From Escherichia coli (GTDB lineage: Bacteria; Pseudomonadota; Gammaproteobacteria; Enterobacterales; Enterobacteriaceae), in assembly GCF_048403405.1 (NCBI RefSeq), contig NZ_CP183131.1: DNA of 64,000 nt; one strand, given 5' to 3'. Below the pieces are notes generated by a model. It saw only the letters and a list, made by a program, of their open reading frames with translations. It was not told where the DNA came from and ran no database searches. The position numbers and the translations under genes are program-made. Shown here in pieces: positions 31,434 through 52,736 of this stretch; within the stretch, counting starts at the first letter, position 1; each line of letters starts with the position of its first letter.

Positions 31434-31453
31434 AACTTTCACATGTGAAAGTT
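31434..31453. promoter_or_regulatory. perfect 20-bp palindrome AACTTTCACATGTGAAAGTT (parS-like)
   Basis: Same 16-bp core as at ~49316 and ~52721. Confidence 0.6.
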
Positions 31454-31477
31454 CAAAGCGGCCAATGGCCGCTTGTT

Positions 31478-32140
31478 TCACACTGTTCTATTGTAACGGA
31501 GTTCTCGATAAGCATCCCATGCTTGCTCTGATGAGACACCTCGACAACCAACATCTGTGGCGCACTCAAGGTCCATCTTGTACTGCTTAACCTTCTGGTC
31601 TGCTGTATCGCCCCAGCTCATGGCTGATGGGTACTTGGAAACACTAAACACATTTTCAAGTTCAGCCTGATAGTCGTCGTTTTGTAACAGAGGTTCGGTT
31701 TCACCATCATCCCAGCGAATGTAAGCCTTACCCTGGAGAGCCTTCAAATGCAAAGGCACCAGTAAGGTGGAAATCACTTCGTCAGCCCTGATGTCTTTGT
31801 AAGCACACCAGTGAGGTTTAACGGTGATCACACCATTTACCAAAACGATGTCACACGCCAGTGTCGCTTCAACATTATCGTTAACATCCTGCCGAGCGTA
31901 GATCTCCACGAAACCAACCTGCTCTGGAACAACCTTGTCGATGAAGCTCCAAAAGCTGGGGTACGACGTTCCATCGCTGAGCGTCAACTGACCGTCATGC
32001 TCTTTCAGCATACGGTTCAGTTGTGCAGTGAAGAACTCTGCCGACACTTTTCTTGCCAATGGTTCCATATCACTCAGTCGTAGAGTGGCTCCTGCACCCC
32101 CCTCATACACCTCTCCAAAAAAGAAATCTCTCTTACGCAT
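31478..32140 (-). CDS. hypothetical protein (220 aa)
   Basis: ORF in the traD-to-traL interval; terminator-like hairpin downstream. Confidence 0.55.
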   Translation of the reverse strand: MRKRDFFFGEVYEGGAGATLRLSDMEPLARKVSAEFFTAQLNRMLKEHDGQLTLSDGTSYPSFWSFIDKVVPEQVGFVEIYARQDVNDNVEATLACDIVLVNGVITVKPHWCAYKDIRADEVISTLLVPLHLKALQGKAYIRWDDGETEPLLQNDDYQAELENVFSVSKYPSAMSWGDTADQKVKQYKMDLECATDVGCRGVSSEQAWDAYRELRYNRTV

Positions 32141-32517
32141 TAGACTTTGCCTCCTTTAATCGCTTGCTGGGTCAGCTTGATCCAGTTCAACGGGTTTTCA
32201 CAGTCAACATGGTTGCCAGCGGCACCAACTACCGTTTTGTATGCCTCCGAGCCTGCCGCTGTGTGTACTGCCAGCATAAACGAAAACATAGGGTCATTTT
32301 GCATGGTGCCAATCATCATTGCACTGGAAGTGTCTTTGAGCTGGCAGTTTTCAACCCGCAGATTGAGTACATCTTTTGCCACCATCTTACAGTCGGGACA
32401 CACCTTCTCAAGGTTCTTGAGCTTTGCGTCGTCATTGAGCACATCAGGAGCCGCGATGGCAGTACCGGCCATACACAGCCCCAGTGCCAGCAGTTTGAGT
32501 TTATTGGTTACTTTCAT
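32140..32517 (-). CDS. exported protein with CPDC motif (possible thiol-disulfide oxidoreductase-like)
   Basis: Signal peptide MKVTNKLKLLALGLCMAGTAIA; CxxC motif. Confidence 0.5.
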   Translation of the reverse strand: MKVTNKLKLLALGLCMAGTAIAAPDVLNDDAKLKNLEKVCPDCKMVAKDVLNLRVENCQLKDTSSAMMIGTMQNDPMFSFMLAVHTAAGSEAYKTVVGAAGNHVDCENPLNWIKLTQQAIKGGKV

Positions 32518-32526
32518 GGTTCCTCT

Positions 32527-32973
32527 CTATATCGTTCCAATTTCGTTTCGGTAAAAGAACAGTGGCCCAGTGACTGTTCTGAGTTCCGGCGTTACTTGCT
32601 TTACTCTTGAGCAAATATGCTGCTTGAAAAAGTTGTGGTATCCGTACAAAGCTGGGCGTGTAAAAACGGAATAGATAATGAGGGTGATGGCCGCACCAGC
32701 GGCCCACCCGATCACGTCCGGAGAGATAAGTCCTGGCACGTCTGAGATACGTTCTGGTTCAACCAAGCGGCACACCACCAGCACCCAGAACCACATTACC
32801 GGCATCACAAAGATCATCTTTCCGACGCAAGCAATGAGCACCTTCACCAAATTCAAGCTCTGCGCCCAGTAAAGCCACAACGCAGACAAGGATTGGCGAC
32901 GTATCACCTGGTAGACGTTCAATGGGATGTCGCACAGATGCACCCCATCTTGATTTATAACGGAGTAGCTCAT
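32527..32973 (-). CDS. hypothetical inner-membrane protein
   Basis: Multiple hydrophobic segments. Confidence 0.5.
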   Translation of the reverse strand: MSYSVINQDGVHLCDIPLNVYQVIRRQSLSALWLYWAQSLNLVKVLIACVGKMIFVMPVMWFWVLVVCRLVEPERISDVPGLISPDVIGWAAGAAITLIIYSVFTRPALYGYHNFFKQHICSRVKQVTPELRTVTGPLFFYRNEIGTI

Positions 32974-32982
32974 CCTCCCTCC

Positions 32983-33612
32983 CTATACCCGTTTCTGGAG
33001 GTTGCCGAACGTCAGGCCAACCAGGACACAGCACGTCATCATTGTCATCGGGATGACAACCGGATCGAGCGCTATGGGGATGAAGAACGCGATGAACAAT
33101 CCGGCCATCAGGTACATCGTTCCGCGAACGCTATAACGATGGAGAACCGGACTCGCATAATCGAAGTTGGTCCGCTTAATTCGCCATGTCATCATCCCGT
33201 CATATACCGCAGGTACGAACAGGATCAGCATATAGGGAGCCCACGCGGCTAACAGCGCCAACCGTGTGTAGAACTGGTAAATGACGTTGACAAAGGCTTC
33301 CATGCGGCCTTTGACCCACACAAACCAGCCCTTGCCCATATCCTGCATCCCCTTGGACTTCTGGCGCTCCTCTTCTGATGGGATCAGCGTTTGGTACATC
33401 CCCTCATAGAAGCCTGAATCAATAACGCTCGACCTGAACCAGGTAGATGCTTTGTTCTGTATCCAGTCTCTTGCTTCGACACCAAGACTCTGTTCCACCA
33501 GCACGGATTCCCTTTTGATGGCTCTGTCTGTCCAGTCGCCAGGGATCAGCAGCAATATTGCCAGCAACTCAATAACCAGCAGCCATGCGACCAGCAACCA
33601 CGGCTTCTTCAT
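32983..33612 (-). CDS. hypothetical inner-membrane protein
   Basis: N- and C-terminal TM helices; located downstream of traD. Confidence 0.5.
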   Translation of the reverse strand: MKKPWLLVAWLLVIELLAILLLIPGDWTDRAIKRESVLVEQSLGVEARDWIQNKASTWFRSSVIDSGFYEGMYQTLIPSEEERQKSKGMQDMGKGWFVWVKGRMEAFVNVIYQFYTRLALLAAWAPYMLILFVPAVYDGMMTWRIKRTNFDYASPVLHRYSVRGTMYLMAGLFIAFFIPIALDPVVIPMTMMTCCVLVGLTFGNLQKRV

Positions 33613-34153
33613 AGTCGGTTCTCCTTAAAACAGTTTTCACGCTCTCACAGGTGATGAGCTCATACAGCAAGCCACGCAAAGAGGTCTCATCCTCATGGGG
33701 CTGCGGGTTAATGGATAGTTCTCCTGGATGGGAAGAAAGCCACAGTGAGAACGACTCTCCTGAATCGACAGACCATGAATCACCGCCACTATCGACAATT
33801 TGCACTTCCAACGCCCGGCAGGTTTCGGTGATCAGGGTTTCCAGAAATGCCCCAATTCTGGCCGGGTCTTCATATTTCTCTCTCTGCTCATGAAACACGA
33901 GCTGGCTGTAGCGATGCAGAGCTTCTTCAATGATCGGGTAAATCACAGGCTCCTGATTAGCCTTAATCCCGTCTGTGATGTAGCAGCTCAGCTTCTCGAT
34001 GATGGCCTCCGATGCAGGCCAGTCGAATTGGAGGATGCTCAGGATGTGAGCGTTCTTGCGGCCACGACTTTTCAATTCATTCATAACCCTGTCGAAAGGG
34101 TTCACATCGACCATGATGGCTACCTCGTAATCTCTATACTTCTTGTCACACAT
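33569..34153 (-). CDS. hypothetical protein (194 aa)
   Basis: ORF immediately downstream of traD; start uncertain. Confidence 0.5.
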   Translation of the reverse strand: MCDKKYRDYEVAIMVDVNPFDRVMNELKSRGRKNAHILSILQFDWPASEAIIEKLSCYITDGIKANQEPVIYPIIEEALHRYSQLVFHEQREKYEDPARIGAFLETLITETCRALEVQIVDSGGDSWSVDSGESFSLWLSSHPGELSINPQPHEDETSLRGLLYELITCESVKTVLRRTDYEEAVVAGRMAAGY

Positions 34154-34163
34154 AGCTCTGCTC

Positions 34164-36029
34164 TTACTGGGTCAATATGGGCAGACGGCCTTTTACGATT
34201 GTTCCGCCTGAAATTTTGGCTATGTATTCCAGGTTCGGAAGCATTCCCAATAACTGGGCTGGGAACAGATCAGCTTCCTCCTCCATCAAACGCTCGCCTT
34301 GGTTGCCTCCGTGCATAATGGGCTCCTTGCCATCCGAGTTCTGGCCTTGAGTCCGCATGACGTACTTGAGCCGGGTCTTCGGCAGGTTATCCGCGATATA
34401 CTCCTGGGTTTCACCATCGACGATACGCAGAGCAAACGTGTTGTTGATGTTCCCCAACACCTGGAGCGCTTTGTCTTTGCTACCCAGTCGAGCTGCGAAG
34501 TCAGCAAAAGTCTGAGTTGCAACGAAAAGACGAAGTTTCGCACCGCGACCTTTGTTCAGGAGCTGGATGAACGGGTCGTTGATCACCTCGGCAGCCTCAT
34601 CAACAAAGATATTTACGGGTCTGTTGTTGACGCCGTAGTTGTATCTGTCACCGGCAACCGCTGTCAGGTCTGACAGGAAGATGGACCCCATAGCACTACC
34701 AACCATGTTGTCGGTCAGGGAGTCGAGCCCCAGATAAGCAACTTGAGCGTTGTTGATGATTTTTGCGGAATCGGTGATCTGGCGTTCGTCGCTCAGATCA
34801 GATGAGTCTGGAGACAGCAGAGGGCCTAGCTCCCCGGACGTCAGCATATTCATGATCGGCAGGAGGTTCGCCACCATCTTGGAGAAGTGGGTTTGGTCGT
34901 GCTGGAACATCGACAGCAAGCCTTCCAGGTCAGAGTTCGGGTGCTCAGGTTGGATGATGTCGTAGTAGAACTTCATCAACGCGAAAGCGATCTTCTCACG
35001 CGAACCGTTTTTGGCTTTTTCCAAGTAAGCCGCTGCTTCTGCCTCCCAGTCGGGCATAACTCGCTCTGAGTAAGCCTGAACGGCCTTGATGACCAAGCCA
35101 GCAGCGCCACCTTCAAGGAATCGGCGGAGCTTTGTCAGGTTGGGACGATCATGAGTGATGACCAAGCCCTGAGCGATGTTGTTCAGTGCCTGCCATCCAA
35201 ATGATTTGAACGGGTCGGCCCCTGCTTCGGACGGGATCAACGCTGCCAAACGACTTGCGATTTCAGTCACGCGGGTGAAGTTACGCAGAGGGTCGATACG
35301 CACCGACTCTTCCGGGAATGCTGGATGAAATGAGACGAATCTTTCCGGCTGCCCCATAGCTTCACAGGCACGTCGGGCATTGTCCCGCATCTCCTTATCC
35401 CCTTTCGGGTCTATGATGATCACGGCTTCCCCACGCAGAATGGCCTGTGAAATCAGGATGTCGAACATACGGGTCTTGCCCGAGCCGGTGGTCCCAACGA
35501 TCAGCGAATGCCCCTCAGTGTGCTTGAGTGGCTGCATCAGCTTCTCTTCTTTGGGCTCTACCCCGTGAATCCAGGGCTGGCCGATTGGCAGCTCCTTTTT
35601 CTTACCCTGTATCTTCCGGACAACCTTTTTGACCGTGGACTCTCTCCCTACGATGGAAGTCCAGTCGCGTTTCAGGATCTCAAACACGCGCTGGGCATGG
35701 CGGTTTTCCCACAGGAACCCACTACCAAGCCACATATCGTCCGGCGTGTCCTTGATGTACTTTTGGAGCTCCGCAATGGAAATAAACTCCAGATCACGCC
35801 CCTTCAAATGCTTTTGGAGCAGGTGAAGTTTGATAGCCTTGGGCAAACGAGCCATCGCCATCACGCCACAGATCCCCGTCATCCAATAGAATGGCTCCGG
35901 CGGCATCGTGCTGACTTGCTCTACGGCCAAAGCCGCGCCGGAGGCGGCAAGCCAGCCTGCTACAGCATTTTTTTCATAGTTGGGCCGCCACGGCATCTCG
36001 TAGGCGAGCGGGTCATAACTCATTGTCAT
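34164..36029 (-). CDS. traD: TraD/VirD4-family type IV coupling protein
   Basis: Walker A VGTTGSGKT; N-terminal TM helices; overlaps traI stop. Confidence 0.9.
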   Translation of the reverse strand: MTMSYDPLAYEMPWRPNYEKNAVAGWLAASGAALAVEQVSTMPPEPFYWMTGICGVMAMARLPKAIKLHLLQKHLKGRDLEFISIAELQKYIKDTPDDMWLGSGFLWENRHAQRVFEILKRDWTSIVGRESTVKKVVRKIQGKKKELPIGQPWIHGVEPKEEKLMQPLKHTEGHSLIVGTTGSGKTRMFDILISQAILRGEAVIIIDPKGDKEMRDNARRACEAMGQPERFVSFHPAFPEESVRIDPLRNFTRVTEIASRLAALIPSEAGADPFKSFGWQALNNIAQGLVITHDRPNLTKLRRFLEGGAAGLVIKAVQAYSERVMPDWEAEAAAYLEKAKNGSREKIAFALMKFYYDIIQPEHPNSDLEGLLSMFQHDQTHFSKMVANLLPIMNMLTSGELGPLLSPDSSDLSDERQITDSAKIINNAQVAYLGLDSLTDNMVGSAMGSIFLSDLTAVAGDRYNYGVNNRPVNIFVDEAAEVINDPFIQLLNKGRGAKLRLFVATQTFADFAARLGSKDKALQVLGNINNTFALRIVDGETQEYIADNLPKTRLKYVMRTQGQNSDGKEPIMHGGNQGERLMEEEADLFPAQLLGMLPNLEYIAKISGGTIVKGRLPILTQ

Positions 36030-39004
36030 GTTTCATTTACCTCTAAATACAATTTTCCCTGACGTTTCTTGAGCAAAGGGCGTCTCTGTGCCCGGCTCAG
36101 CATCCCGCAGAGGATGTGTTTGCTGATGCCGATGTTTTCACCGGCAATCATGTCGAAGGCTTTGTCACTGGTTACTAAGCAGCCATCCTCTTCCAGGACA
36201 GGTGTCACGAGCCATCGGCCCGAGCGTTTTTGGATCATGTCCTTGAGCATCTGGAGTGCTTTCTGAGGCGTAACACCAGACGGCAAGAAATCTTCCGCGT
36301 TGATGTCTTTCGGGTTTGTTTTCGCCTTAGGCGGCTCAAACTCCCTAACCTCTGGATCTTCCCTTTCTCGCACCTCGACGTGTCCCAATTCCTTCTCACG
36401 CTCAACTTTGGGCTCAGGAGCCACCGGTTGAGCCTCCCGCTTAGGAAGGCGAGCCACGTTCTGTTTTTCTTGGACCGGCTTGCGCTGTTGCTCTTCAACC
36501 GGAGAAGTAACATCGACCTTCTTCTCCTTCGGCTGTGGCTGGGAGTCCTTACCTTTCGCCTTTTGTTCAGGCGAGGCTTTACCGGCATTAACCTCAGGCT
36601 TCTGCTGCTGCGCCTTTTTTCGGCTTTGTTGTTTCGGTGCAGACTTATTTTTGCTTGCATCCAAGCCAGGGGGAGAGACGAGCTCAAAGGCATCCTGGTA
36701 TCCACCCATTGACGCCTCGGCATCCTTAATGGCCGCCACGACTGCATCTGAAAGCTGCTCCGCCAGTACAATTGCCTTCACTCCGCTGAAATCACGAACT
36801 TTGCGACCTGGCATAATCGGGTCCGGAACAATCGCGTTGGCGTGGGACAGCTTCGAGAGAACCTCTGACGGCGCACCCAGCGACCGAGCGCCATCCGGGT
36901 ACAAAATGACGGCTTGCCCCTTCATCAGGCATAGGACTTCGCCCAGCGTCGTTTTACCTTCCAAAACAGGCATGATCGCTTGTTCAAGCAACGCCGATGC
37001 TTCCCCGTATCCAGACAACATCTCAACGAGCAAGGTCTTTGCGTCCTTCTCATGCTGATTAACGTTGTCCGTATGCGGCATTTCTGGCGTGTGCGTTGGT
37101 TGTTCTGGTGCGTCAGTCAGCATAGGGAGCGGCTCAATCGCCCATGATGGCGGTTCATCAGAACCACCGAACATTGGAAAGTCATCGCCCTGCAGGGAGT
37201 TTTGTTCTTGTGGAACGAAGTCCTGTTTTGGCTGCTCCTCTTGCTTTCCGGGCATTGCCACATCTGGGATTTCTGAGTTTGTTGCGTCAGTGCTGGTTGT
37301 CTCTGCCGATGCGTTGAATGCGTCAAACGGGAAGTCGATGTCCCCCAGTCCACCCCCAACATCCTTGAGTGCTTGTAACGGATTGTCGTTTGCCAAAGGT
37401 GGTGCGTTTTTGGCAATGTCCTGAGGGGACAGATCCTCTTTTGCCTCTGGTTTATGGGGTTGTTTCTCCGTATCACTCTTCGGTTTTGCTTTGCCCGGTT
37501 TGCTCTGCGGCTTACCCTTCTTGCCAGCGTCAGGCTTAGATGATTCCGTTGGTCCCGCATCTTTTTGCTCTGGCTTCTCCTCGACAGCATCGGAGGTGCT
37601 TTTCAGCATCTCCATCGCATCACCAAAGCCAAGGCCAGCTAGAGCTTTCTCTGCTTCCTGCTCTGCGGCCAACATGTCATCGTTCAGAGCTGCTTCACCT
37701 TCCTCTTGGTCGTCACCGTCATCGGCTTCCTCAGGATCAACGAACTCAATCTCAGCGTCCTCAACATCACCAACAACTTCCGCAGCAACAGCCGCAGGAG
37801 GCTCAGTCGTAAACACCAGGTCGTTTGATTCGAGTCGGAGCATCAAGATCTTCACCGAACCCGCCGCCTCCTGGAGCATCTCAGGCAAAACTTCCCAGTA
37901 GCGGTAGTACGCACGTTCACCCTTCTCCTGCACCGTGTTTGGTACAGCAAAACCACGTTCGATGAGAATGTCGGCCAGTGTGTCAGGGTCTCGTGGGATA
38001 CCGGGGATCTTGTCGTGGCTGATCAAGTCATAAAGGTCCCCAAGCTGTTTCCAGGCAATGAATACACCTTGGTTGAGGTGCCAGACTTTCGCGCCTGGCT
38101 CATTGACCTTCCATTTTCCGGTTTTAACCAGGCGGCGGATGGCATCGAACACGTAACGCTCGACGGGCACACCATAGGAGAACTCGTCCACATCGAGACG
38201 ACTCTGGCGAAGGTCCCGTGAGACGCTCTCTTGGTCAGCGCGAAGCATCAGCTTGGTCACAGGCTGATTGACGCTGGTTCCTGAGATAGCTTCCAGCATC
38301 GCTTCCATGATGGACGGGCCAGACTTGGACAGAAACTCCCGAGTCTCAGCCGGAATAATTCGATCCACCGCCAGCAGCGAGAATTGCTCATGTCTTTTGT
38401 GTCGCTTGTCGCGCCACCGGATAAAGTAACGGTCGATTTCGTGACGGTGTGCCCAGTCATGAAGTGACTCCGAATACGGGTTCCATGTGATTGACCCGTC
38501 TTTGTCCGTAATGGACACATCCGAGAGCGGTTTACCCACATCATGCAGCAGCCCAGAGAAACAGCTCGCCAGTCTCCAACGCGGCTCATTGTCACGGCGT
38601 TCCCGAGGCGTCCCCTCGATGGAAAAGATAACTGACTCAGATGCCTGAGCTGCCCAGAAGGCCACTTCAAGCCCATGTCGGAACAGACCACCAGCGCCAC
38701 GGTGGTGGTGTGATTCGGAAGCTGGCAACAGGTGAACAAACGCGGCATACCGCTGGATCACCGGCAAAACAAGCCGGTTGAAGTCGTCCACAGTGAAACC
38801 GAGAGAGTTCCGCACTTTCTCAATCAGTTCAGCTTGGGTTGCCAGTATCTTGTCTAGTGGGGCCACTGGCAGGCCCTTGGCAAAAGGTGGGTATCGAGGG
38901 ATTTCTTCATCTTCCACGTCTTTAAGCGGCAACACTCTGGCGCTCGGCGCGGTCTCGATCACTCCACTTCGCCCACCAAATAACTTGTTAAGGGCTTTCA
39001 GCAT
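36026..39004 (-). CDS. traI: MOBH-family relaxase TraI (HD-domain)
   Basis: 992 aa; HD motifs HHHRGAGGLFRHGLEV and GLLHDVGKP; low-complexity K/P/E/Q-rich C-terminal region; followed by traD. Confidence 0.85.
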   Translation of the reverse strand: MLKALNKLFGGRSGVIETAPSARVLPLKDVEDEEIPRYPPFAKGLPVAPLDKILATQAELIEKVRNSLGFTVDDFNRLVLPVIQRYAAFVHLLPASESHHHRGAGGLFRHGLEVAFWAAQASESVIFSIEGTPRERRDNEPRWRLASCFSGLLHDVGKPLSDVSITDKDGSITWNPYSESLHDWAHRHEIDRYFIRWRDKRHKRHEQFSLLAVDRIIPAETREFLSKSGPSIMEAMLEAISGTSVNQPVTKLMLRADQESVSRDLRQSRLDVDEFSYGVPVERYVFDAIRRLVKTGKWKVNEPGAKVWHLNQGVFIAWKQLGDLYDLISHDKIPGIPRDPDTLADILIERGFAVPNTVQEKGERAYYRYWEVLPEMLQEAAGSVKILMLRLESNDLVFTTEPPAAVAAEVVGDVEDAEIEFVDPEEADDGDDQEEGEAALNDDMLAAEQEAEKALAGLGFGDAMEMLKSTSDAVEEKPEQKDAGPTESSKPDAGKKGKPQSKPGKAKPKSDTEKQPHKPEAKEDLSPQDIAKNAPPLANDNPLQALKDVGGGLGDIDFPFDAFNASAETTSTDATNSEIPDVAMPGKQEEQPKQDFVPQEQNSLQGDDFPMFGGSDEPPSWAIEPLPMLTDAPEQPTHTPEMPHTDNVNQHEKDAKTLLVEMLSGYGEASALLEQAIMPVLEGKTTLGEVLCLMKGQAVILYPDGARSLGAPSEVLSKLSHANAIVPDPIMPGRKVRDFSGVKAIVLAEQLSDAVVAAIKDAEASMGGYQDAFELVSPPGLDASKNKSAPKQQSRKKAQQQKPEVNAGKASPEQKAKGKDSQPQPKEKKVDVTSPVEEQQRKPVQEKQNVARLPKREAQPVAPEPKVEREKELGHVEVREREDPEVREFEPPKAKTNPKDINAEDFLPSGVTPQKALQMLKDMIQKRSGRWLVTPVLEEDGCLVTSDKAFDMIAGENIGISKHILCGMLSRAQRRPLLKKRQGKLYLEVNET

Positions 39005-39084
39005 GTAGGTTGACCATATTCCTATCGTATTTCTCGTCGCTACATGCTCTCAAAACACCTTTAGATCGCACACACGCCTATCTG

Positions 39085-39099
39085 TCCAATTTGGGCAGT
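39085..39099. promoter_or_regulatory. GCCCAWTTTGGRCA-type box ~81 bp upstream of traI, in divergent intergenic region
   Basis: GTCCAATTTGGGCAG preceded by CTGT. Confidence 0.5.
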
Positions 39100-39171
39100 T
39101 TGAGAAACCAGCTTTCCATCCCCCCCCTTTTAGAATGGGCTCATCGACAATTTTTGATGAGGAACGACACG

Positions 39172-39789: not shown

Positions 39790-40004
39790 GAAACCAGACA
39801 GAGCCAAGCCGTAAGGCTGAGCTCTTCGACGCTTTATCAATCATGCTCCAGGAGGCCGGTTCGAGGGGTAATTCCCGCGAAGCGGCCTATGTCATTTCTG
39901 GAGTCCTCGAAAACCTCTCCAGAGACTACCCCGAAGTCAAAGGTCTGGCCCAAAGCTGGGCTGAGCTGGCGAATCTGGAATCAAAGATGAGAGGAGCTGC
40001 TTAA
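39771..40004 (+). CDS. hypothetical small protein (77 aa), stop overlaps topB start
   Basis: TAATG junction with topB. Confidence 0.45.
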   Translation: MQSSEIRNQTEPSRKAELFDALSIMLQEAGSRGNSREAAYVISGVLENLSRDYPEVKGLAQSWAELANLESKMRGAA

Positions 40005-44516: not shown

Positions 44517-45093
44517 TCTTCTCAGCCCCCAGCTTACTCAGTATTTCAGCTTTTGTAGCGCGATGGCCGCGCATTAAAAGAGCATTCAGCAGGTATCCAG
44601 TGAACACCTCTGTACTCGGCATACGGTCAAGCAACTCAACATACTGCTCATCCGTCAAATCATGGATCTCACAATATTTTTCCACCGCCTTTTCGTAGGC
44701 TTCTGCGTAGCCATGAGTGGAAATCCTGAAAGCAATATCCCCATTGCCGTAGCCTGGCTTTGTGACGAGAAAACAAGGCGCGAAGTAGGTTCTCTTCACC
44801 CCCATCCGGCTCCGGTTCTCAATGCTGATATAAGCCCTCAGCCCCTCAGCAATGATGTTTGGCCCGGAGTTGCGTCGCCGCTTACAAGTCTTATTCTGAC
44901 GCTTCACCTCTTCTGCCTCAGCTTCCCACTTTCGGTCCAAGCTGTAGGCCAGCCGGTGAGCTGTTGCGTAGGAATACTCTCTCAAGGAGAAGTATTCCTG
45001 CCGGTAATCATCCGCCACCCCAACTGTTCGTGCGACACGGAACCCGACGAAACCGGCGTCATGGGTTCCCTCGCCGTAGTAAATGACTGCCAT
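44437..45093 (-). CDS. hypothetical protein (218 aa)
   Basis: ORF directly downstream of Dcm-like gene; stop-start junction. Confidence 0.5.
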   Translation of the reverse strand: MAVIYYGEGTHDAGFVGFRVARTVGVADDYRQEYFSLREYSYATAHRLAYSLDRKWEAEAEEVKRQNKTCKRRRNSGPNIIAEGLRAYISIENRSRMGVKRTYFAPCFLVTKPGYGNGDIAFRISTHGYAEAYEKAVEKYCEIHDLTDEQYVELLDRMPSTEVFTGYLLNALLMRGHRATKAEILSKLGAEKNEEDIANGKGKSGQNRVRCPEYRWAQ

Positions 45094-46520
45094 TATCTAC
45101 CTTCCTTACTTCTGATACCGTGCTGCACCACGGTATGGCGACCGCAATTCACATTCAGGTGATCCCGAACTGCGGCCATGACCGCTGAATGCAATCTGTA
45201 ATCCACACTCTGCCCAAGCGTTTCTGTCGCTTGTTCTTTTGCCATCCACGAAACATCAAAGCTATCAGGTATCGACATCAACTCCTGAACCAGATCGACC
45301 GATGGCTTGTAAATGCGGCCACCGTCTTGGATGTACACTGCATCCTTTACCCCACGATCCTGAGACTTGAGGATGGTCGGGCAACTGGTGCTTTCTCTCG
45401 TCAAGAACGCAGGCATCCTGCGAGAAGTTGACTCTCTGGCCTGAATTGACTTCAACACTGTGACGTCAGCACAATCCCCGAGGTGCTTCTCGATCACCGG
45501 CCACAATCGTCCACCAGCTCTCTGCTCAGGTTTCGGTGGAACGAACCCAGGGAAGACCGACGCCACCATGTAATAGCGTTCTCGCCCCTGGTAAGCGCCG
45601 AAATCCAGACCGTTCAAGACCATCTCAGTGAGGAAGTACCCCATCCGCCGCAGTGTCGTTCCCATCATCGCCCCGGCTCCGGATGCTTTGAAGTTCGGGA
45701 CGTTTTCCACCAGCACGACGGCAGGGTTCACGACCTCGATCTGTTTTAGTGCCGGGTAAACCATGTCGAGCATGGTGGAGAGATCCTCAAGAGAACGCTC
45801 TTTGTCCCTTGGACTTTTGGCGTTTGAGTGGTCATCACACCCCAACGAGTAATGGGCCAAACCAATTGGTGGGCACTCCGCCAGCAAGGCTCCAAGGCGA
45901 TCCAGCTCCAGGTGATGAATGTCTTCATTCAGCAGGATACGCGGGGAGCTGTTCACCAGCGTATTGAGCGCATGTACTTCACTCAGGTTCCGCCCGGATG
46001 CTCTGTCTCTGGCTTCAACTGGACGATGCTCCAAAACAATCTCAGCCTTCCAGCCAAGCGCTTCCATAACATGAATGTCTACCCCGCCAGTCAATGCCAC
46101 AAAGGCACGGAAAGGGCTGGTTTTTCTGAACCGATCCGCAATGGCAAAGGCTCTGTTTGCGACAGGAGTGAAGACTACTCGGCCTTTTCGCATTTCGACG
46201 TGGAAACGCTCTGTATAGCGAGGGAAGCACTTATCTATGAGCCCTTGTCCAGAAAACTCAATAACGGTTTCCAGCGGGTTGTTGGAGCGACTCTTTGGTT
46301 GATACCGGCGCTGATAAACCTGGTGTGTCTGTAGTTCATCGGTCGCTGGGATCACCGAAAAACCGCCCATCCCCTCCCCTGGCTCAACGGCGATGCCCAT
46401 ACCTGGCTTGAACCCCATAACATCCAAAAAGTTGGACGAAACCCTAACCTTGCGTTTATCGCCTACTCGATTGAACGCAAGTTGTTTGGTTACTACGGAG
46501 GGGGAGACGATCGGTAACAT
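45093..46520 (-). CDS. C5-cytosine DNA methyltransferase (Dcm-like), no adjacent endonuclease recognised
   Basis: ENVPNF motif and QGRERYYMVA (QxRxR) motif; 475 aa. Confidence 0.7.
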   Translation of the reverse strand: MLPIVSPSVVTKQLAFNRVGDKRKVRVSSNFLDVMGFKPGMGIAVEPGEGMGGFSVIPATDELQTHQVYQRRYQPKSRSNNPLETVIEFSGQGLIDKCFPRYTERFHVEMRKGRVVFTPVANRAFAIADRFRKTSPFRAFVALTGGVDIHVMEALGWKAEIVLEHRPVEARDRASGRNLSEVHALNTLVNSSPRILLNEDIHHLELDRLGALLAECPPIGLAHYSLGCDDHSNAKSPRDKERSLEDLSTMLDMVYPALKQIEVVNPAVVLVENVPNFKASGAGAMMGTTLRRMGYFLTEMVLNGLDFGAYQGRERYYMVASVFPGFVPPKPEQRAGGRLWPVIEKHLGDCADVTVLKSIQARESTSRRMPAFLTRESTSCPTILKSQDRGVKDAVYIQDGGRIYKPSVDLVQELMSIPDSFDVSWMAKEQATETLGQSVDYRLHSAVMAAVRDHLNVNCGRHTVVQHGIRSKEGR

Positions 46521-46523
46521 TGG

Positions 46524-47024
46524 TCAACCTCTTTTCTTCTTGTTTTGCTCGCGCTTCACCATTGCTCCAGCAGCTTTCAGAAGTCTCTGGTTCTCCGCCA
46601 GCTCCTCTTGGAGTTCCTGAGTATCCTCTTCTGTCTGAGGCTTTTTCAGCTCGGCCTCGCAATATTGGACCTCTTCCTGCAAGCTGACTTTCGCAAACTT
46701 GAGAGCGGCCAGTCGCGTCGTATAAACGCCAAAAGGCAATTCGCCACCTTCCCGGAACTGCTTCAAACACCAGCTCGGTATAGATGGCAACCAACCAAAG
46801 TCCCCATTCTTCCGTGACCTTTTCCCCCACGTAATCCCATCTAACTTTTGGGCAAGATTGACATAGCGTTGATCGCTGGTTGAGTTGCGTCGTTTCTGAA
46901 TAGAGCGAACTATCCACTCTGTAACCTCGACCTTTGCTTTATCATCATCAGAGATGTAATAAAGGGCTGCGTACAACACAGCGCCTTTACGAATGACTGA
47001 TGGTGGGTATGCCTGGGCTTTCAT
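46524..47024 (-). CDS. hypothetical protein (166 aa)
   Basis: ORF in operon. Confidence 0.5.
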   Translation of the reverse strand: MKAQAYPPSVIRKGAVLYAALYYISDDDKAKVEVTEWIVRSIQKRRNSTSDQRYVNLAQKLDGITWGKRSRKNGDFGWLPSIPSWCLKQFREGGELPFGVYTTRLAALKFAKVSLQEEVQYCEAELKKPQTEEDTQELQEELAENQRLLKAAGAMVKREQNKKKRG

Positions 47025-47032
47025 CTATCCCC

Positions 47033-47365
47033 CTATCGCTTTTTCTGTCCGACAAGACGGAGATGATCGGCGGCCAAGTCATACTGCTCGTTTTTGTCGC
47101 GGCGGCGGAATCTGTCAAAAAACTTCCCTCGTGGCAGGGTTTCTTCCATAGCGATCAGGCGGTTCAGCCACACTTCTTGAGGTAGCATCCCTGCTGGAGT
47201 CGGCCCGAGCTTACGTCCTTCCTTGACGTGCTCCATTGTTTGCGTGGCAGTAAAAATCGCACCACCAAACTTTCTCCACTTGAATTGCAGGGGCATATCT
47301 GGAGACTCATCCAGCATCAATTTCTTATTGGTTTGTTCTGTCACGACAATTACTCCACCATCCAT
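47033..47365 (-). CDS. hypothetical protein (110 aa)
   Basis: ORF in operon. Confidence 0.45.
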   Translation of the reverse strand: MDGGVIVVTEQTNKKLMLDESPDMPLQFKWRKFGGAIFTATQTMEHVKEGRKLGPTPAGMLPQEVWLNRLIAMEETLPRGKFFDRFRRRDKNEQYDLAADHLRLVGQKKR

Positions 47366-47874
47366 TCTTCACTAAGCAGGAACGCCCAGCGCTCTTCTGC
47401 TTTTTCTGGGTTGTCTTTGGCCTGTTTGATCATGATCTCGGCGGCGTTAAAGCCTACCTCTCCACTGAACCGGCCCCATGAATGGCTATGCCACTCGCGC
47501 ATCACACTTCGGCCAAGCGATGCAAGTTCTGGACTTACACCCTCATGGAGGGCATAGAGCTCCCAAGCATCCCACCCGTATCGTAATAGGTTGTGCCCTG
47601 GGGCGTTAAAGGCCTGAGCAGCCTTGAACCGCTCTCCAGGCTCCTTCCCTCTAACATCCACACCCTGGAGCACCAACCCCATTACCACTTCAATGACCGG
47701 CTCGCGTTGCTTCTTTGCCAGCTCGATGGCAGCCACCAGCATTGCTTTGGCGTCAGCAAATTTCCCATGCCCTTGGCACATACCGCAGGTTTCTTTGGAA
47801 GGGGAAAAGTCATAAACACCGGAACCAGCACAGAGGCGGCATGTCATGTCAATCATGGGCTCTTCTCTCCTCAT
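47350..47874 (-). CDS. protein with DnaJ-type zinc-finger repeats (CRLCAGSG, CGMCQGHG)
   Basis: Two CxxCxGxG motifs near N-terminus. Confidence 0.55.
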   Translation of the reverse strand: MRREEPMIDMTCRLCAGSGVYDFSPSKETCGMCQGHGKFADAKAMLVAAIELAKKQREPVIEVVMGLVLQGVDVRGKEPGERFKAAQAFNAPGHNLLRYGWDAWELYALHEGVSPELASLGRSVMREWHSHSWGRFSGEVGFNAAEIMIKQAKDNPEKAEERWAFLLSEEWMVE

Positions 47875-48556
47875 ACTCTTCGATGCGCTCTTTCAGACGC
47901 TGAACCACTGGTGCGAGCTCAGGGATAGCTTCCGCTTCCTCAAGCGTGTATCGCTTGTCTTCCTGGTAATCGACTATTTGAGGAGGCCTTGGCTGTTTAG
48001 GGAACTCAGCAAAGTCATTCAGCGACATCGAGGTAGGAAGTCCTCCTTCAATCTCACCTTTTTCGTTGAGTGACTGGGTGACGATAAGCTGTGTTCCGCC
48101 CACCTCGGTATCAAAGCGGTCATCAAAGCGCTCACCGATAGTCCAGCCGCCACGGCCAAGAACACAGGTCGTACTCATACGTAGGCGATTGAATGCTTTA
48201 GCGTCATCCCAGTTCAAAGGATTTTCATCCATGAGGAAAAAAGGCGCTTCGTCCCGAACGAACACCTTGGACTTGGCGTTATCGAAGATCGGCCCAAACA
48301 CCCCCTGCTGGAGGTATGGTTCGACCTTCTCTGCAAGATCCTGGTGCCCTTGAGAACGCAGCGCCTCATAGAGCTGGGTGATTGTTTGTTTGCCGGTGCC
48401 CGGAAGGCAGGACAATACTGTCTGCTTTTCCTCGTCACTCAGGCTTACCATTCTGGACAAAAAGCTGACTACCAGCTCGTTGTGCCCATCGACCGTTTCA
48501 ATGTTGAGCTTGTTCTCGTCCATCTTCTTCCTCAGTAATCGGTTCGATAAATTCAA
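47849..48556 (-). CDS. hypothetical protein (235 aa)
   Basis: ORF in operon. Confidence 0.5.
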   Translation of the reverse strand: MNLSNRLLRKKMDENKLNIETVDGHNELVVSFLSRMVSLSDEEKQTVLSCLPGTGKQTITQLYEALRSQGHQDLAEKVEPYLQQGVFGPIFDNAKSKVFVRDEAPFFLMDENPLNWDDAKAFNRLRMSTTCVLGRGGWTIGERFDDRFDTEVGGTQLIVTQSLNEKGEIEGGLPTSMSLNDFAEFPKQPRPPQIVDYQEDKRYTLEEAEAIPELAPVVQRLKERIEEYEERRAHD

Positions 48557-48866
48557 TGGAGTCCATGCTTACATGACTGATAATGGCTTTCAGGCCGCAG
48601 CAGTCGCATGGTTCAAAGGTCAGTTCTGATCCCTTGGGAGACTGATGCGTGACCGTTGCCACAGCCCCTAGAGGGATCACCCCCCAGCCGTTTTTTAGTA
48701 CCCGAGTAGTTCTGACCAGCCGACCTTTGTACTCTCGTTTCAGTTTCGGATGCGGCACTACCGCATATCGCTTACTCATTTCGGTCCCCTTGTACCAAAG
48801 GCTCGACAACCAGCTCTTGAGCTTCGTCCCAGTCGGACACCTTTGCATCACCAAACGCAAAGGCAA
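48498..48866 (-). CDS. hypothetical protein (start probably internal ATG ~48779)
   Basis: ORF; overlap with upstream gene suggests later start. Confidence 0.4.
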   Translation of the reverse strand: MPLRLVMQRCPTGTKLKSWLSSLWYKGTEMSKRYAVVPHPKLKREYKGRLVRTTRVLKNGWGVIPLGAVATVTHQSPKGSELTFEPCDCCGLKAIISHVSMDSIEFIEPITEEEDGREQAQH

Positions 48867-49158
48867 TTCGCATAGCCACTGTCGGCCTGCCTATTTTCAT
48901 CAAGTAAGCCGCAGCACCGGCACACATCGACTCTTGTCCCGAAGGTGCATAGTTACCCTCTTCATCCCATTCACCACCTGACTTTGAATGCACGGTCTTG
49001 TGGCAATGAAACGTCGTCATGTCGTTTTCAACGATGTCGTTGATGATGCCTTCTAATCGCCCAGGGACCAGCTCGATAGCGCCCTCCTTCCGGAATGGAC
49101 AGTTGGCGCAAGGTTTCTTCAAACGGAGATGATTTGCTTGCTTTGGCATACATATCAC
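48772..49158 (-). CDS. cysteine-rich small protein (CANCPFR...HCHKTV), first gene of the operon
   Basis: ORF ~89 bp downstream of a box. Confidence 0.5.
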   Translation of the reverse strand: MICMPKQANHLRLKKPCANCPFRKEGAIELVPGRLEGIINDIVENDMTTFHCHKTVHSKSGGEWDEEGNYAPSGQESMCAGAAAYLMKIGRPTVAMRIAFAFGDAKVSDWDEAQELVVEPLVQGDRNE

Positions 49159-49246
49159 TTTTACAGTATCATTTTATGATTCTATGATATAGCCATATTC
49201 CGTGTAGTCAATATCTCACTAACAATTACTTTCTATCGGACGCTTA

Positions 49247-49261
49247 CGCGCCCATTTTGGG
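49247..49261. promoter_or_regulatory. GCCCAWTTTGGRCA-type box ~89 bp upstream of the 49158 operon start
   Basis: GCCCATTTTGGGCAG. Confidence 0.5.
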
Positions 49262-49314
49262 CAGATAGACAAGTTATTTGGGCGTTTGGAGTGTGCGAGG
49301 TGGACAGCGGGGAG

Positions 49315-49332
49315 ACTTTCACATGTGAAAGT
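49315..49332. promoter_or_regulatory. perfect palindrome ACTTTCACATGTGAAAGT (parS-like)
   Basis: Same core as 31436 and 52721. Confidence 0.6.
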
Positions 49333-49467
49333 TTTGTTTCTTGGTATCGTTTTATTGTCCCTTGATATTATTTTATGATGCTGTAATAATCATAAATAAG
49401 GGCCGCATCGCTCTTCGACCTTCGTTGCAGCCCTTACAACACAATCAAGCAATTAAGGAGCTTTGTT

Positions 49468-49611
49468 ATGCTGCAAGGCAATACTAACACGAATAAGCGC
49501 ATCCCGCTCGCGGCGTTCATGAAATGGCCGCTGGCGAAACGTCAGGACTTCATCGACCGGGAAATGTCCGGTTGCCCCGACTTTATCAAGACGTCTTTGC
49601 TTCGGCATTAA
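49468..49611 (+). CDS. possible small protein (47 aa)
   Basis: AAGGAG 8 nt before ATG; followed by hairpin; below ORF-track cutoff. Confidence 0.35.
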   Translation: MLQGNTNTNKRIPLAAFMKWPLAKRQDFIDREMSGCPDFIKTSLLRH

Positions 49612-49702
49612 GGCGATCAGGCAGGAAAGCAAAGAACCTCGCTTCGGCGGGGTTCTTCGTTTCTACCTCTTGAATGTTTCGTCAGAACAAACTGGAGCGC
49701 TT

Positions 49703-50338
49703 ATGTCACCAGAAACACAGCAACTTACATCCAAGGCTTTATCTCTCATCGAGCAGTCCCGATACAGAATGGGCACATCTCGGTTTGTTGAGGCCTTTAT
49801 TGACCAGTGGGCATACTTGCAGACTGGCCTATACCCAGCCAAGGAGGAGATCCCGGAAGAACTTCAGCCGGTCGCCTTCGAGCTCTCTCACGTCCTGTCT
49901 GCCGCCATTAAGCGCGACCCCACCAGCGATGTTTTGGGTTACGTCCTAAGCATGTCTGGCTTCCACAAGAAGGGCACCAATTACTTCCCCACTCCTCCAG
50001 AGATTGGCCGCTTGATGTCACTCATTGTTGGCTCACAGTCTTCGGCAGACTTTTATGAGCCCTGCTGTGGTTCTGGCATCAACGCCATTCACTGGATGGA
50101 AAACCTGATCGAGAACCACGGTCCCGAAGCATTGAGAGAAGCCTCAATCTACCTGGAAGACATCGATCCGTTGATGGTGAAGTGCTGCATGATCCAGCTA
50201 TTCCATTATTTCGAGTCCCGCAATACCACTCCCAAAACGCTGAGTATCGTCGGCATAGACACCCTTAGCAGACGAACCAAGAACATCGCCTACTACGCCG
50301 AAAAACCTCCAGCAACCGCCGCTACCGTGGCAGCATAA
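49703..50338 (+). CDS. N6-adenine methyltransferase-like SAM-binding domain protein, apparently lacking catalytic (D/N)PP(Y/F) motif
   Basis: FPTPPEIGRLM and FYEPCCGSG motifs; GGAG RBS; only 211 aa. Confidence 0.5.
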   Translation: MSPETQQLTSKALSLIEQSRYRMGTSRFVEAFIDQWAYLQTGLYPAKEEIPEELQPVAFELSHVLSAAIKRDPTSDVLGYVLSMSGFHKKGTNYFPTPPEIGRLMSLIVGSQSSADFYEPCCGSGINAIHWMENLIENHGPEALREASIYLEDIDPLMVKCCMIQLFHYFESRNTTPKTLSIVGIDTLSRRTKNIAYYAEKPPATAATVAA

Positions 50339-50364
50339 AAAAACCCGCCGATTGGCGGGTTTTG
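50337..50364. terminator. bidirectional terminator (CCCGCCGATTGGCGGG hairpin)
   Basis: A-run / hairpin / T-run. Confidence 0.7.
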
Positions 50365-50390
50365 CATTCAATGCGCTGCTCTATGGCACC

Positions 50391-50669
50391 TTACAGTTTT
50401 CCGTACCGGTTCAAGAACGAAGACCTGTCTAAGATCCCCCAGTCTGTCAGCATGTAGTAGCCGGTGGCACCTCGTTCGCCGGTAGACTCCCTGACGAACA
50501 AGATATTCATTCCGAACTCATCACGCAGGGCAGACAACTGTCTCTTGATCGTTGATTCAGGAATATTTGTTGCCTTGTGAAGGTCTTGGAGACTTGGCTT
50601 CTCCGTTTTAGACAGGGCATTCACCAAAGCAAATTTTCTTTTCATGTCCTGTGAGATCTTCATATTCAC
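50391..50669 (-). CDS. small HTH-type protein downstream of parB
   Basis: 92 aa; helix-turn-helix-like segment ESTIKRQLSALRDEFG. Confidence 0.5.
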   Translation of the reverse strand: MNMKISQDMKRKFALVNALSKTEKPSLQDLHKATNIPESTIKRQLSALRDEFGMNILFVRESTGERGATGYYMLTDWGILDRSSFLNRYGKL

Positions 50670-50711
50670 CTGTTCTTGACAGGCCCAACCTCTCTGGCTG
50701 GGCCTCCTTTA

Positions 50712-51893
50712 TTAGCCTTCGACACTCAGGAGTTCAATGTCTGACACAGGCACATGAACATGCTTTTCCTTGCCTTCGCCATCGAGCGTTTTAACCCAGA
50801 CAGTAGACGGAACCAGAGCAACACGGTCGGTCATGATGACTCCACGTTTGGTCTCGCCATCCAGGTTAACGTTGACAGCAAAAATCAAACTGTCAGCCCG
50901 GACGTTCTTCCATTCCTTGTCCTTCGGCAGAGGAGGAAGAGCATCACCGCCTTCTTCATCTTTGTCCTTGCCGCTGTTATCTGGCTGCTTGACAGGATCT
51001 TTGTGCTCACCCTCTTCATCACGCAAAGGGTCTTCGTCATCATCGTCCTGACCATTGGAATTTTTACCCCCTTCCAGTTCCTCCTGGGCAAGGTTCAGGT
51101 CGTCATTCCCGGTTTGTTCCGACGTACCATCCCCACCCGAGTTGAGGGATTGCTCGTCGGTGTTGCCAGCGCCAAGCTCATCATTCTGGTGGGAGCCAGT
51201 CAGTGGGCCTTTTTCCATTTCGTCTTTGATACGTTTGGCATCATTCAGCAGCTCACGGCTTTGTTTACGAGTAATCCCGTCAGACATAGCCACCGCGCAG
51301 ACGGCGCGACATCTTTCTTCATTCAGATCGAACAAGAGACGAAGGTTATTCAAGGTCTCTGTATCAGAACATACTTCATTATCGTATAACTCACGCACAC
51401 AGTCAGGTAGCTTGAGCAACGACAGATGCGTAGATACGAAAGTGATATTCTTACCGAGCCGATCAGCAATATCCTTTTGCTTCCAACCTTCTTCAATAAA
51501 CAGGTTTAACGCCTCGGCAATCTCTACCGGAGTCAAGTCATCCCGCTGGATGTTTTCGATCAGCTCACCAGCAGTCTCGTCCAAGTTGTTCTGGACCTTA
51601 TCATTCACCACCAAGTCAATGGTCTCGATACCAGCGTGTTTACACGCTCTCCAACGCCGCTCCCCTTTTTGGATGACGAACTTGCCTTCTTCGTTCTTCG
51701 GGAACACGATGATCGGAGACTGCTGCCCTTCGGTCAGCAAGGTTGCCGCCAGCTCTTCAATGTTACGGAAGCGCTTACGAACCTGGACCTTGGATACAAC
51801 GTCGTCAACAGGTACGGTAAGAACCTCTTTGCCTTTCTTGCCTTTGGCGGCTTTAGCAAGTTCGGACAGGCCTTTTAAATTGTTCAATGCCAT
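50712..51893 (-). CDS. parB: ParB-family partition / DNA-binding protein with acidic low-complexity linker
   Basis: ParB box GERRWRA; 393 aa; downstream of parA. Confidence 0.85.
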   Translation of the reverse strand: MALNNLKGLSELAKAAKGKKGKEVLTVPVDDVVSKVQVRKRFRNIEELAATLLTEGQQSPIIVFPKNEEGKFVIQKGERRWRACKHAGIETIDLVVNDKVQNNLDETAGELIENIQRDDLTPVEIAEALNLFIEEGWKQKDIADRLGKNITFVSTHLSLLKLPDCVRELYDNEVCSDTETLNNLRLLFDLNEERCRAVCAVAMSDGITRKQSRELLNDAKRIKDEMEKGPLTGSHQNDELGAGNTDEQSLNSGGDGTSEQTGNDDLNLAQEELEGGKNSNGQDDDDEDPLRDEEGEHKDPVKQPDNSGKDKDEEGGDALPPLPKDKEWKNVRADSLIFAVNVNLDGETKRGVIMTDRVALVPSTVWVKTLDGEGKEKHVHVPVSDIELLSVEG

Positions 51894-51896
51894 CGC

Positions 51897-52688
51897 TTAG
51901 CCCACCTTCTCTAATAGTTCTTCCAACACCGCCTCAACTTCTTTGGCCGCGACATGTCCATAGCGAAGCTCCCAGACAGGGATGCCATCAGTCGTCGCCG
52001 TATCGAGCGGAGGCCGGTGCATAATTTTGTTCTCAAACAACAGATCCGGAACTGTGTTCTCCAGCGACTTGAGGGCTTTGTCGTGATTGACAGAGCGGTC
52101 CATGTCGTTGATCACGATGCCCAGGATCTCCAAATCTTGGTTGTACGCCTCGCGCACACCAATAATCGTGTTCAGGAGACCTTCTACGCCGTCCACAGCG
52201 AAGCCAGAGAGCTTTACTGGACATGCCACATGGGTAGACATCACCAACGCTGCCACCAGCTTTCTGCCGAGGCTAGGCGGACAATCAATCAGCACGTAGT
52301 CGTAGTTCTCAAACAGCTCAGCCAAATGGCGAGCCGGATTCATGGCCTGGTCAAGAGGCACAGCCTCCATCTCAAACAGATCCGGGTCGTTTTTCGGCGT
52401 ATGAATGAGGTCTGCACCGCAAGGGCAGTGCATGACCTCAATGCCGTCCAGCTCGTAAGCGAACAGCTCTGCGGTTTTGGTTCCTGTGAGGATGGGCTCG
52501 TAGTCACCATCCTCAAGCTCTCGTCTGGGGGCCAGTCGAGAGGACGTGTTCCCCTGACCATCCATATCCAAGACCAGCACTTTCTTTTTCTTCTGTAACG
52601 CCAGATAAAAGGCCTGCTGGATACAGAGGGTACTCTTACCCACTCCGCCTTTCTGGTTGGCGAAGCTGATTACTTTTGCCATACCCAC
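51897..52688 (-). CDS. parA: ParA-family partition ATPase
   Basis: Deviant Walker A KGGVGKST. Confidence 0.9.
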   Translation of the reverse strand: MGMAKVISFANQKGGVGKSTLCIQQAFYLALQKKKKVLVLDMDGQGNTSSRLAPRRELEDGDYEPILTGTKTAELFAYELDGIEVMHCPCGADLIHTPKNDPDLFEMEAVPLDQAMNPARHLAELFENYDYVLIDCPPSLGRKLVAALVMSTHVACPVKLSGFAVDGVEGLLNTIIGVREAYNQDLEILGIVINDMDRSVNHDKALKSLENTVPDLLFENKIMHRPPLDTATTDGIPVWELRYGHVAAKEVEAVLEELLEKVG

Positions 52689-52718
52689 CTCTATTTTGGT
52701 TTCTCGCAGGTGATCAAG

Positions 52719-52736
52719 ACCACCCCCAAACTTTCA
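52719..52736. promoter_or_regulatory. parS-like palindrome CTTTCACATGTGAAAG ~33 bp upstream of parA start (candidate centromere/operator)
   Basis: Third copy of the palindrome; ATCATAAAATGAT motif 12 bp away. Confidence 0.6.

Follow-up and report, generated by a model that had tools for sequence, protein, structure and literature searches.

The stretch analysed here, referred to as the window, comprises 64,000 nucleotides from Escherichia coli (assembly GCF_048403405.1, contig NZ_CP183131.1) and represents the backbone of an IncC (IncA/C2) conjugative multidrug-resistance plasmid, over which a palindrome, CTTTCACATGTGAAAG, is dispersed. The annotated gene order runs traN...traC...traV/B/K/E/L, traD, the MobH relaxase, topoisomerase III, the dcm methylase, and 053-parB-parA, with a sul2/strAB/blaTEM resistance island annotated beyond parA. 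The last three backbone genes, at 50391-52682, form the cognate parAB053 operon on the same backbone as the palindromes, and PLSDB contains thousands of IncC plasmids with a parAB region 100% identical to this one. Exactly this motif has been described as the IncC partition site, parS, by Murányi, Szabó, Acsai and Kiss (Nucleic Acids Research, NAR, 2024; PMC10954446), who also pointed to the KorB domain in ParB and raised a KorB-like global-regulator role as a hypothesis. The palindrome is real and beyond chance, and since both the observation and its interpretation are in print, the finding itself is already known. Whole-plasmid counts were made on the complete 135-kb IncC plasmid pEI-MS-17-156-1 (pEI), and the coordinates of the motifs of the activator AcaCD and of transcription start sites (TSS) listed by Carraro et al. 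2014 (Table S3) were transferred to the window via gene positions.

Exact copies of CTTTCACATGTGAAAG were found at 10329-10344, 31436-31451, 49316-49331, and 52731-52746, and allowing up to 3 mismatches yielded 0 extra matches in the window. The original prediction, made from the sequence alone, had located the copies at ~31436 and ~49316 correctly; it counted three in all, overlooking the one at 10329 inside the open reading frame (ORF) 9939..10799, and put the last one at ~52721 instead of 52731. Because this copy had been set 10 bp too far left, its distance to parA was given as 33 bp, while the actual distance is 48 bp to the annotated ATG (52682) and 42 bp to an upstream GTG (52688). The likeness to chromosomal parS that had been pointed out was evident by inspection, as the TTTCAC/GTGAAA arms are separated by a central 2-bp AT insertion. 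The search for more copies on the rest of the replicon, which had also been suggested, revealed 14 exact 14-bp cores plus one single-mismatch copy on pEI, and the four sites of the window correspond to pEI record positions 88435, 109542, 127422, and 130837.

Shuffled sequence contained a mean of 0.26 matches to CTTTCACATGTGAAAG, and 4 or more copies were reached in 0 of 100 shuffles. Chance repeats, or sites of a host factor unrelated to ParB, therefore have practically no probability in our estimate. The core does contain the pentamers TCACA and TGTGA, reminiscent of a CRP-like site, but these half-sites stand in the wrong order and without the 6-bp spacer. Furthermore, the core is strictly associated with ParB homologues, even those only 49% identical, and the published electrophoretic mobility shift assay (EMSA) with purified ParB and specific competition (PMC10954446) effectively refutes this explanation.

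In the published work, the IncC parS is a 22-bp inverted repeat, AAAC-TTTCACATGTGAAA-GTTT, the 14-bp core TTTCACATGTGAAA of which is invariant, and 14 copies are dispersed over the backbone of R55 (PMC10954446). In EMSA, purified ParB retarded DNA of the parA-promoter site, of the consensus (eexC) site, and of the copies on the genomic island SGI1, and binding was lost on a 4-bp central insertion (PMC10954446). The prediction that ParB binds these sites is accordingly covered by published data for the parA promoter (PparA) and the consensus. ParA plus ParB stabilise a parS-bearing mini-replicon, so the sites are a centromere, and incompatibility data have been published as well (PMC10954446). 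At all four sites of the window, the G and T beside the core of the AAAC/GTTT flanks are kept on at least one side. The original prediction allowed for a different repeat array elsewhere on the replicon as the true centromere; no tandem array able to serve as an alternative ParB centromere was found in the window or the whole plasmid. A centromere role combined with autoregulation of PparA is, in our judgement, nearly certain.

The cognate ParB was examined for its relationship to KorB. Pfam identified ParB_N (PF02195) at residues 23-116 (E = 1 × 10−12) and KorB (PF08535) at residues 134-222 (E = 4.1 × 10−38), the latter matched over its full length (1-89/89), and the closest relative in the PDB by sequence was KorB 8qa8 (E = 9 × 10−21), with 1r71 also among the PDB matches. 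In the alignment with 8qa8, the GxRRxR phosphate motif (GERRWR here, GARRYR in KorB) and the ENxQR box are conserved. The linker, residues 223-322, is of low complexity and, as originally stated, acidic, with 31 D/E vs 8 K/R and a net charge of -23. Since a PDB sequence search with the conserved C-terminal domain (~70 residues) found no match, an AlphaFold prediction was needed. The resulting model (15 homologues, pLDDT 85.9) is a five-stranded barrel, and its top PDB match is the KorB-C dimerisation domain 1igq (TM 0.77, rmsd 1.9-2.5 Å, probability 1.0), with a weak E value of 0.016 that makes this structural support only. The proposed KorB-likeness is borne out by the PF08535 match, by 8qa8 as the closest PDB entry, and by the fold nearest to KorB-C, and ParB has KorB architecture over its whole length, the C-terminal part as modelled.

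Homologue searches revealed a broad ParB family, from which eight loci with ParB proteins 87, 69, 65, 63, 59, 58, 52, and 49% identical were taken as relatives, ±10 kb being sampled per locus (~21 kb). The exact 14-bp core occurred in 8/8 of these loci, with 2 to 13 copies per ~21 kb and with ParB down to 49% identical, and in seven of the eight it stands directly after the -10 element of PparA. The exception is L010 (a Marinobacter contig, ParB 52% identical), where the -35, spacer, and -10 of PparA are kept at ~9150-9175 and parS is replaced by unrelated sequence, with exact parS copies elsewhere in the locus; judged from these sequences, this lineage may have lost parS-based autoregulation. 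L007 (E. coli plasmid CP100851, ParB 58% identical) carries at 5000-5411 a tandem array of 8.6 units of 48 bp with the core in each, and dispersed copies too. Thus, the same motif can be used in two arrangements, clustered in a classic centromere array or dispersed. We also observed that two ParB homologues, P0035 (from L007) and P0101, have a ~60-residue internal duplication of KorB-domain helices (LSLLKLP...ILNDAK repeated).

PparA, the position of which agrees with the promoter predicted previously (PMC10954446), carries its parS across the end of the -10 hexamer (Table 1). This parS doubles as autorepression operator and centromere site, with ParB binding established by the published EMSA (PMC10954446). 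A resident IncC plasmid represses PparA 8-11-fold and parAB053 alone does so more weakly, from which Murányi et al. inferred an extra backbone-encoded co-repressor, possibly antagonised by the SGI1 protein Sci (PMC10954446). The third gene of the operon, 053, is reported to be essential for plasmid maintenance and dispensable for ParAB-mediated stabilisation (PMC10954446). Two sequences next to this promoter are recorded as separate observations. The 5′ untranslated region of parA contains, between parS and the ribosome-binding site (window 52710-52725), a conserved inverted repeat, GGTGATC-AA-GACCACC, which several relatives keep with variation; it might form an RNA hairpin or act as another operator. 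Directly upstream of the -35 hexamer (window 52776-52802, minus strand), nearly all relatives retain the block TTACAGAACCATAATTAGATATTGCAG, a degenerate version of the palindromic promoter frame described below that has the hexamer TTGCAG in common with the main promoter. Its sequence suggests that tandem promoters or operators may exist at PparA.

The 17-nt spacer of PparA reads T-ATCATTTTATGAT-CGC, and the palindrome ATCATTTTATGAT occupies 52756-52768. The exact 13-mer was found again at 49168, and a one-mismatch copy at 49367 lies in a predicted promoter facing vcrx035. Alignment of the occurrences gave an extended palindrome, TTACAG-n-ATCAT-nnn-ATGAT-n-CTGTAA, which doubles as a TTTACA-17-TATAAT-like promoter frame. 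The IncC plasmid has 9 sites matching at least 16/22 positions (~0.4 expected) and 5 matching at least 18/22 (0 expected), and the extended palindrome is present in all sampled relatives except L011, which has the inner ATCATTAAATGAT only. Half of the inner-palindrome matches lie within 150 bp of a parS, and in the relatives a parS is situated 41-106 bp upstream of a palindromic promoter in 10/10 cases. Some variants alter both arms symmetrically (for example ACCAT...ATGGT and TTATAG...CTATAA), so that a dimeric protein fits better than promoter function alone. The outer arms are promoter-like, and part of the "palindrome" may therefore be shared promoter ancestry. By analogy, we infer that it is a candidate operator for the PparA co-repressor. 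A LexA box was considered for the ACAG...CTGT palindrome and rejected, as the half-site order and spacing are wrong. A string search of the literature for this second palindrome returned one irrelevant match only; figures are unsearchable in this way, so a prior description is possible.

We then compared the positions of parS with those of the AcaCD boxes. The sequence GCCCATTTTGGGCA occurs exactly at 31374 and 49250 in the window, and both boxes coincide with AcaCD motifs determined by ChIP-exo/MAST and with 5′-RACE start sites (Carraro et al. 2014, mapped). parS and GCCCATTTTGGGCA are separated by 48 bp in the first pair and 52 bp in the second (63 and 67 bp between centres), so the ~55-70 bp given originally is about right. 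The box called traL-side in that prediction is a real one; it belongs not to traL, whose own box is at 30703, but to P_vcrx068, two small ORFs upstream of traL, and it therefore drives the small ORFs upstream of that gene. The parS at 49313..49334 is, in addition, ~50 bp upstream of the predicted vcrx035 promoter. On pEI, parS lies within 90 bp of 5/12 AcaCD-like boxes, upstream in four cases (34, 37, 63, and 67 bp centre to centre) and downstream, in the transcribed region, in one (87 bp, box 11859). Thus, five of the 14 pEI sites adjoin AcaCD boxes, one overlaps PparA, and several are upstream of sigma-70-like palindromic promoters; the Discussion of PMC10954446 likewise lists the AcaCD-dependent promoters of vcrx012, vcrx036, vcrx068, and traF as adjoining parS. 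Overall, 10 of the 14 cores are intergenic, vs an intergenic share of 11.3% of the backbone (binomial P = 2 × 10−7). The samples from distant relatives contain only two more pairs of parS and AcaCD box (in L005, box 2449, and in L007), with parS downstream in both, too few to generalise. The RNA-seq data of Carraro et al. 2014 on the response of the par operon to AcaCD were not used, since parA, parB, and 053 diverge in direction and replicates vary by orders of magnitude.

Table 1. Coordinates of the operon, parS sites, AcaCD motifs, and second-palindrome copies (window positions unless stated; a dot marks features given without strand)
Feature	Position	Strand	Description
parA	51897..52682	-	261 aa, short ParA/CbiA-type ATPase
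parB	50712..51893	-	393 aa; ParB_N with GERRWR 23-116, KorB DNA-binding domain 134-222, acidic linker 223-322, SH3-like C-terminal domain
orf053	50391..50663	-	90 aa, winged helix-turn-helix PF09904, third gene of parAB053
PparA core promoter	52747..52775	-	-35 TTGCAG (52775..52770), 17-nt spacer, -10 TACAAT (52752..52747)
parS at PparA	52728..52749	-	overlaps last 3 nt of -10 hexamer, covers start-site region; core (52731) flanks aaac/gatt (minus strand aatc/gttt)
parS	49313..49334	.	divergent vcrx036/vcrx035 intergenic region; centre upstream of P_vcrx036 AcaCD box, ~-120 from TSS; core (49316) flanks agac/gttt
parS	31433..31454	.	intergenic, downstream of ORF 31478..32140(-); centre upstream of P_vcrx068 AcaCD box, ~116 bp upstream of mapped TSS; core (31436) flanks aaac/gttc
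parS, 22-bp inverted repeat	10326..10347	.	in ORF 9939..10799 (286-aa hypothetical protein, WP_000709517); the "R55_91" site of the literature (PMC10954446); core (10329) flanks tttc/gttt
AcaCD motif of P_vcrx068	31364..31392	-	contains GCCCATTTTGGGCA 31374-31387; TSS ~31326-31328 (Carraro 2014 Table S3, mapped)
AcaCD motif of P_vcrx036	49240..49268	-	contains GCCCATTTTGGGCA 49250-49263; TSS ~49203-49205; vcrx036 coding sequence 48772..49149(-)
Extended palindrome at PparA	52749-52775	.	fills PparA spacer
TTACAGTATCATTTTATGATTCTATGA copy	49161..49187	.	20/22 positions; between vcrx036 TSS and start codon; + strand promoter reading TTTACA-17-TATGAT
Weaker copy	49360..49386	+	15/22 positions; inner palindrome ATTATTTTATGAT 49367-49379; in predicted vcrx035 promoter
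Weak copy	9864..9890	+	16/22 positions; 49 bp upstream of ORF 9939..10799 (the ORF with parS 10329)
Further copies	pEI record 11889, 12242, 13339, 15056, 26339		

Several observations concern neighbouring parts of the plasmid. vcrx035 itself (window 49468..49611, +) is a 47-aa ORF beside the methylase gene, conserved in IncA and several distant relatives (47-49 aa). The ORF was silent under each of the three RNA-seq conditions published, and parS and the spacer palindrome stand before it. The resistance island (window 53400-64000) contains sul2, aph(3'')-Ib, aph(6)-Id, blaTEM-1, and transposase genes and has a higher GC content, 0.55-0.59. It begins ~700 bp upstream of parA, where IncA has backbone genes, and truncates a promoter region bearing parS and an AcaCD box that is intact in L005. 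Outside the window, at pEI record 31380-31410, an 11-bp repeat, AAGCAATCTAA, is present 2.8 times directly upstream of a ParM/StbA-family gene and probably serves the second partition system of the plasmid, of the ParMRC type, as its centromere or operator.

The placement of the sites might have no regulatory meaning beyond PparA. The dispersed copies would then serve partition, many ParB loading points building or condensing the complex, with promoter proximity as a by-product of intergenic tolerance. Chromosomal ParB spreading usually alters transcription little (PMC11790492), L007 concentrates ~9 copies in its 48-bp tandem array without an obvious promoter role, and the PparA of L010 has kept its promoter and not its parS, so promoter placement is not obligatory. 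Against this explanation stands the recurring geometry, both upstream of the AcaCD boxes of the IncC plasmid and, in independent relatives, upstream of palindromic sigma-70 promoters; in addition, mutation of the DR1 parS of SGI1 alters replication control, and the nearest relative of this ParB is KorB, a proven global regulator. We consider it a substantial possibility, though one that falls short of being favoured.

The SGI1 phenotype bears on the direction of any regulation. A 4-bp insertion in the DR1 parS lowers the SGI1 copy number to about 1 per cell, like rep mutants (PMC10954446), and thus argues for activation or permissiveness by ParB at an AcaCD/SgaDC promoter rather than KorB-type repression; it suggests that ParB assists, and does not repress, the AcaCD/SgaDC-dependent S004-rep promoter. 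ParB could on this basis be a positive or permissive co-factor at AcaCD/SgaDC promoters, displacing the H-NS-like silencer Acr2 or aiding activator binding, and so couple the induction of transfer genes to the partition complex. Lower S004-rep expression without ParB binding is implied by the copy number of the knock-out, and at the four IncC promoters parS precedes the AcaCD box and leaves the core promoter uncovered, as is typical of co-activators or anti-silencers. However, the 4-bp insertion could have a cis effect on the promoter that does not involve ParB, PparA is a promoter that ParB represses, and at pEI box 11859 and L005 box 2449 parS follows the AcaCD promoter, placed like a roadblock. 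This role appears unlikely to us.

Taken together, the data are best explained, with high probability, by dispersed parS sites for a KorB-clade ParB with a proposed wider regulation. The four palindromes are part of ~14 dispersed parS sites bound by the KorB-clade CTP-switch ParB encoded by parAB053, which, by analogy with KorB, probably forms a CTP-dependent clamp loaded at each of them. PparA, with parS overlapping its -10/+1 region, is repressed in the presence of Par proteins or of the entire plasmid (PMC10954446). Because most sites are in promoter regions, upstream of AcaCD boxes or of palindromic sigma-70 promoters, ParB probably also modulates those promoters: four AcaCD boxes have a site 34-67 bp upstream, and the same modulation is proposed for sites 40-100 bp upstream of sigma-70 promoters with the conserved palindromic spacer operator. 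A second repressor, acting on ATCAT-N3-ATGAT, might join ParB in a KorA/KorB-like arrangement of two repressors.

The regulation of promoters beyond PparA, which the positional enrichment, the recurrent geometry, the KorB architecture, and the SGI1 DR1 phenotype make plausible, is unproven, and we hold its truth to be evenly balanced. Several points, together with the activating rather than repressing effect suggested by SGI1, weigh against it and against a two-repressor arrangement. Published ParB-linked repression is confined to PparA, the parAB053 operon alone represses even this promoter partially, and the EMSA on IncC sites was limited to two, PparA (the 52731 site of the window) and the consensus (PMC10954446). 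The bare 14-bp core is unbound by ParB (PMC10954446), and binding thus depends on flanks that vary from site to site. Four of the 14 pEI sites are internal to ORFs, and the intergenic bias could merely reflect a poor fit of the 22-bp palindrome, or of the ParB complex, in coding DNA. No homologue of KorA was found here; 053 was rejected as one because it has no sequence relationship to KorA, the only PDB relative of its PF09904 domain being the uncharacterised 3ke2. As a binder of the spacer palindrome, 053 is likewise not favoured, being absent from L006, L008, and L012, which keep that palindrome. In the literature searched, no follow-up study on ParB as a wider regulator was found.

What this analysis adds to the published work is the unchanged core down to 49% ParB identity, the tandem array in a relative, the KorB-C-like fold, the intergenic bias and box geometry, and the second operator; of these, the second operator and the core conservation are modest new leads. 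They allow a tentative, rather doubtful proposal that IncC/IncA plasmids and wider relatives of this ParB family possess an RK2-like two-repressor circuit, in which a ParB clamp is coupled to an ATCAT-N3-ATGAT repressor, linking partition, maintenance, and AcaCD-controlled transfer genes. In such a circuit, that repressor, acting in the spacer of strong backbone promoters including those of parA and vcrx035, would be the co-repressor of Murányi et al. that is thought to be the target of Sci. IncC plasmids rank among the main vehicles of multidrug resistance, and it is through these very parS sites that SGI1-type islands displace them. If KorB-like coordination of partition with maintenance and transfer genes is true, long-range silencing by CTP clamps would be a feature of a second plasmid family, one of clinical importance, and it would be explained how SGI1, via parS mimicry and Sci, rewires its helper plasmid.

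Compared with known systems, the sites of the window are those of the IncA/IncC parS (PMC10954446): the core, the AAAC/GTTT flanks, and the plasmid family are identical, the positions are the same (the parAB053 promoter, R55_55/vcrx036, the R55_74/vcrx068 region, and inside R55_91), the copies number 14, and nothing essential differs. The parS mimics DR1 and DR2 of SGI1 have the same 22-bp inverted repeat, also directly upstream (10 and 25 bp) of AcaCD/SgaDC boxes; they differ in being on a mobilisable genomic island without parAB, where they hijack the partition of the helper plasmid, and in a box spacing shorter than in the window (44-52 bp). The chromosomal ParB/Spo0J-parS system shares the identical TTTCAC/GTGAAA arms and a ParB_N CTP-binding domain, whereas its 16-bp parS, TGTTNCACGTGAAACA, has no central spacer; here, the 2-bp AT at the dyad alters how the half-sites are spaced, DNA is bound by a KorB-type domain, and the sites are replicon-wide instead of clustered near the origin.

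The KorB-OB-KorA system of the IncP-1 plasmids RK2/RP4, in which the OA operator of KorA sits at core promoters and KorA captures the KorB clamp, is alike in the KorB DNA-binding domain, the flexible acidic linker, the SH3-like C-terminal dimerisation domain, and the short ParA partner (261 aa here). Both have about a dozen dispersed palindromic sites, many at promoters, a repressed operon of their own with a small helix-turn-helix gene co-transcribed, and a second palindromic operator in core promoters, which in the IncC plasmid is a candidate placed like OA. The operators are unlike in sequence and spacing, the 13-bp OB, TTTAGCSGCTAAA, standing against TTTCACATGTGAAA with required flanks, and the phosphate motif is the canonical GERRWR here vs GARRYR in KorB. 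No KorA homologue is present in the IncC plasmid, and many IncC sites flank promoters dependent on the FlhDC-type activator AcaCD, which has no counterpart in RK2.

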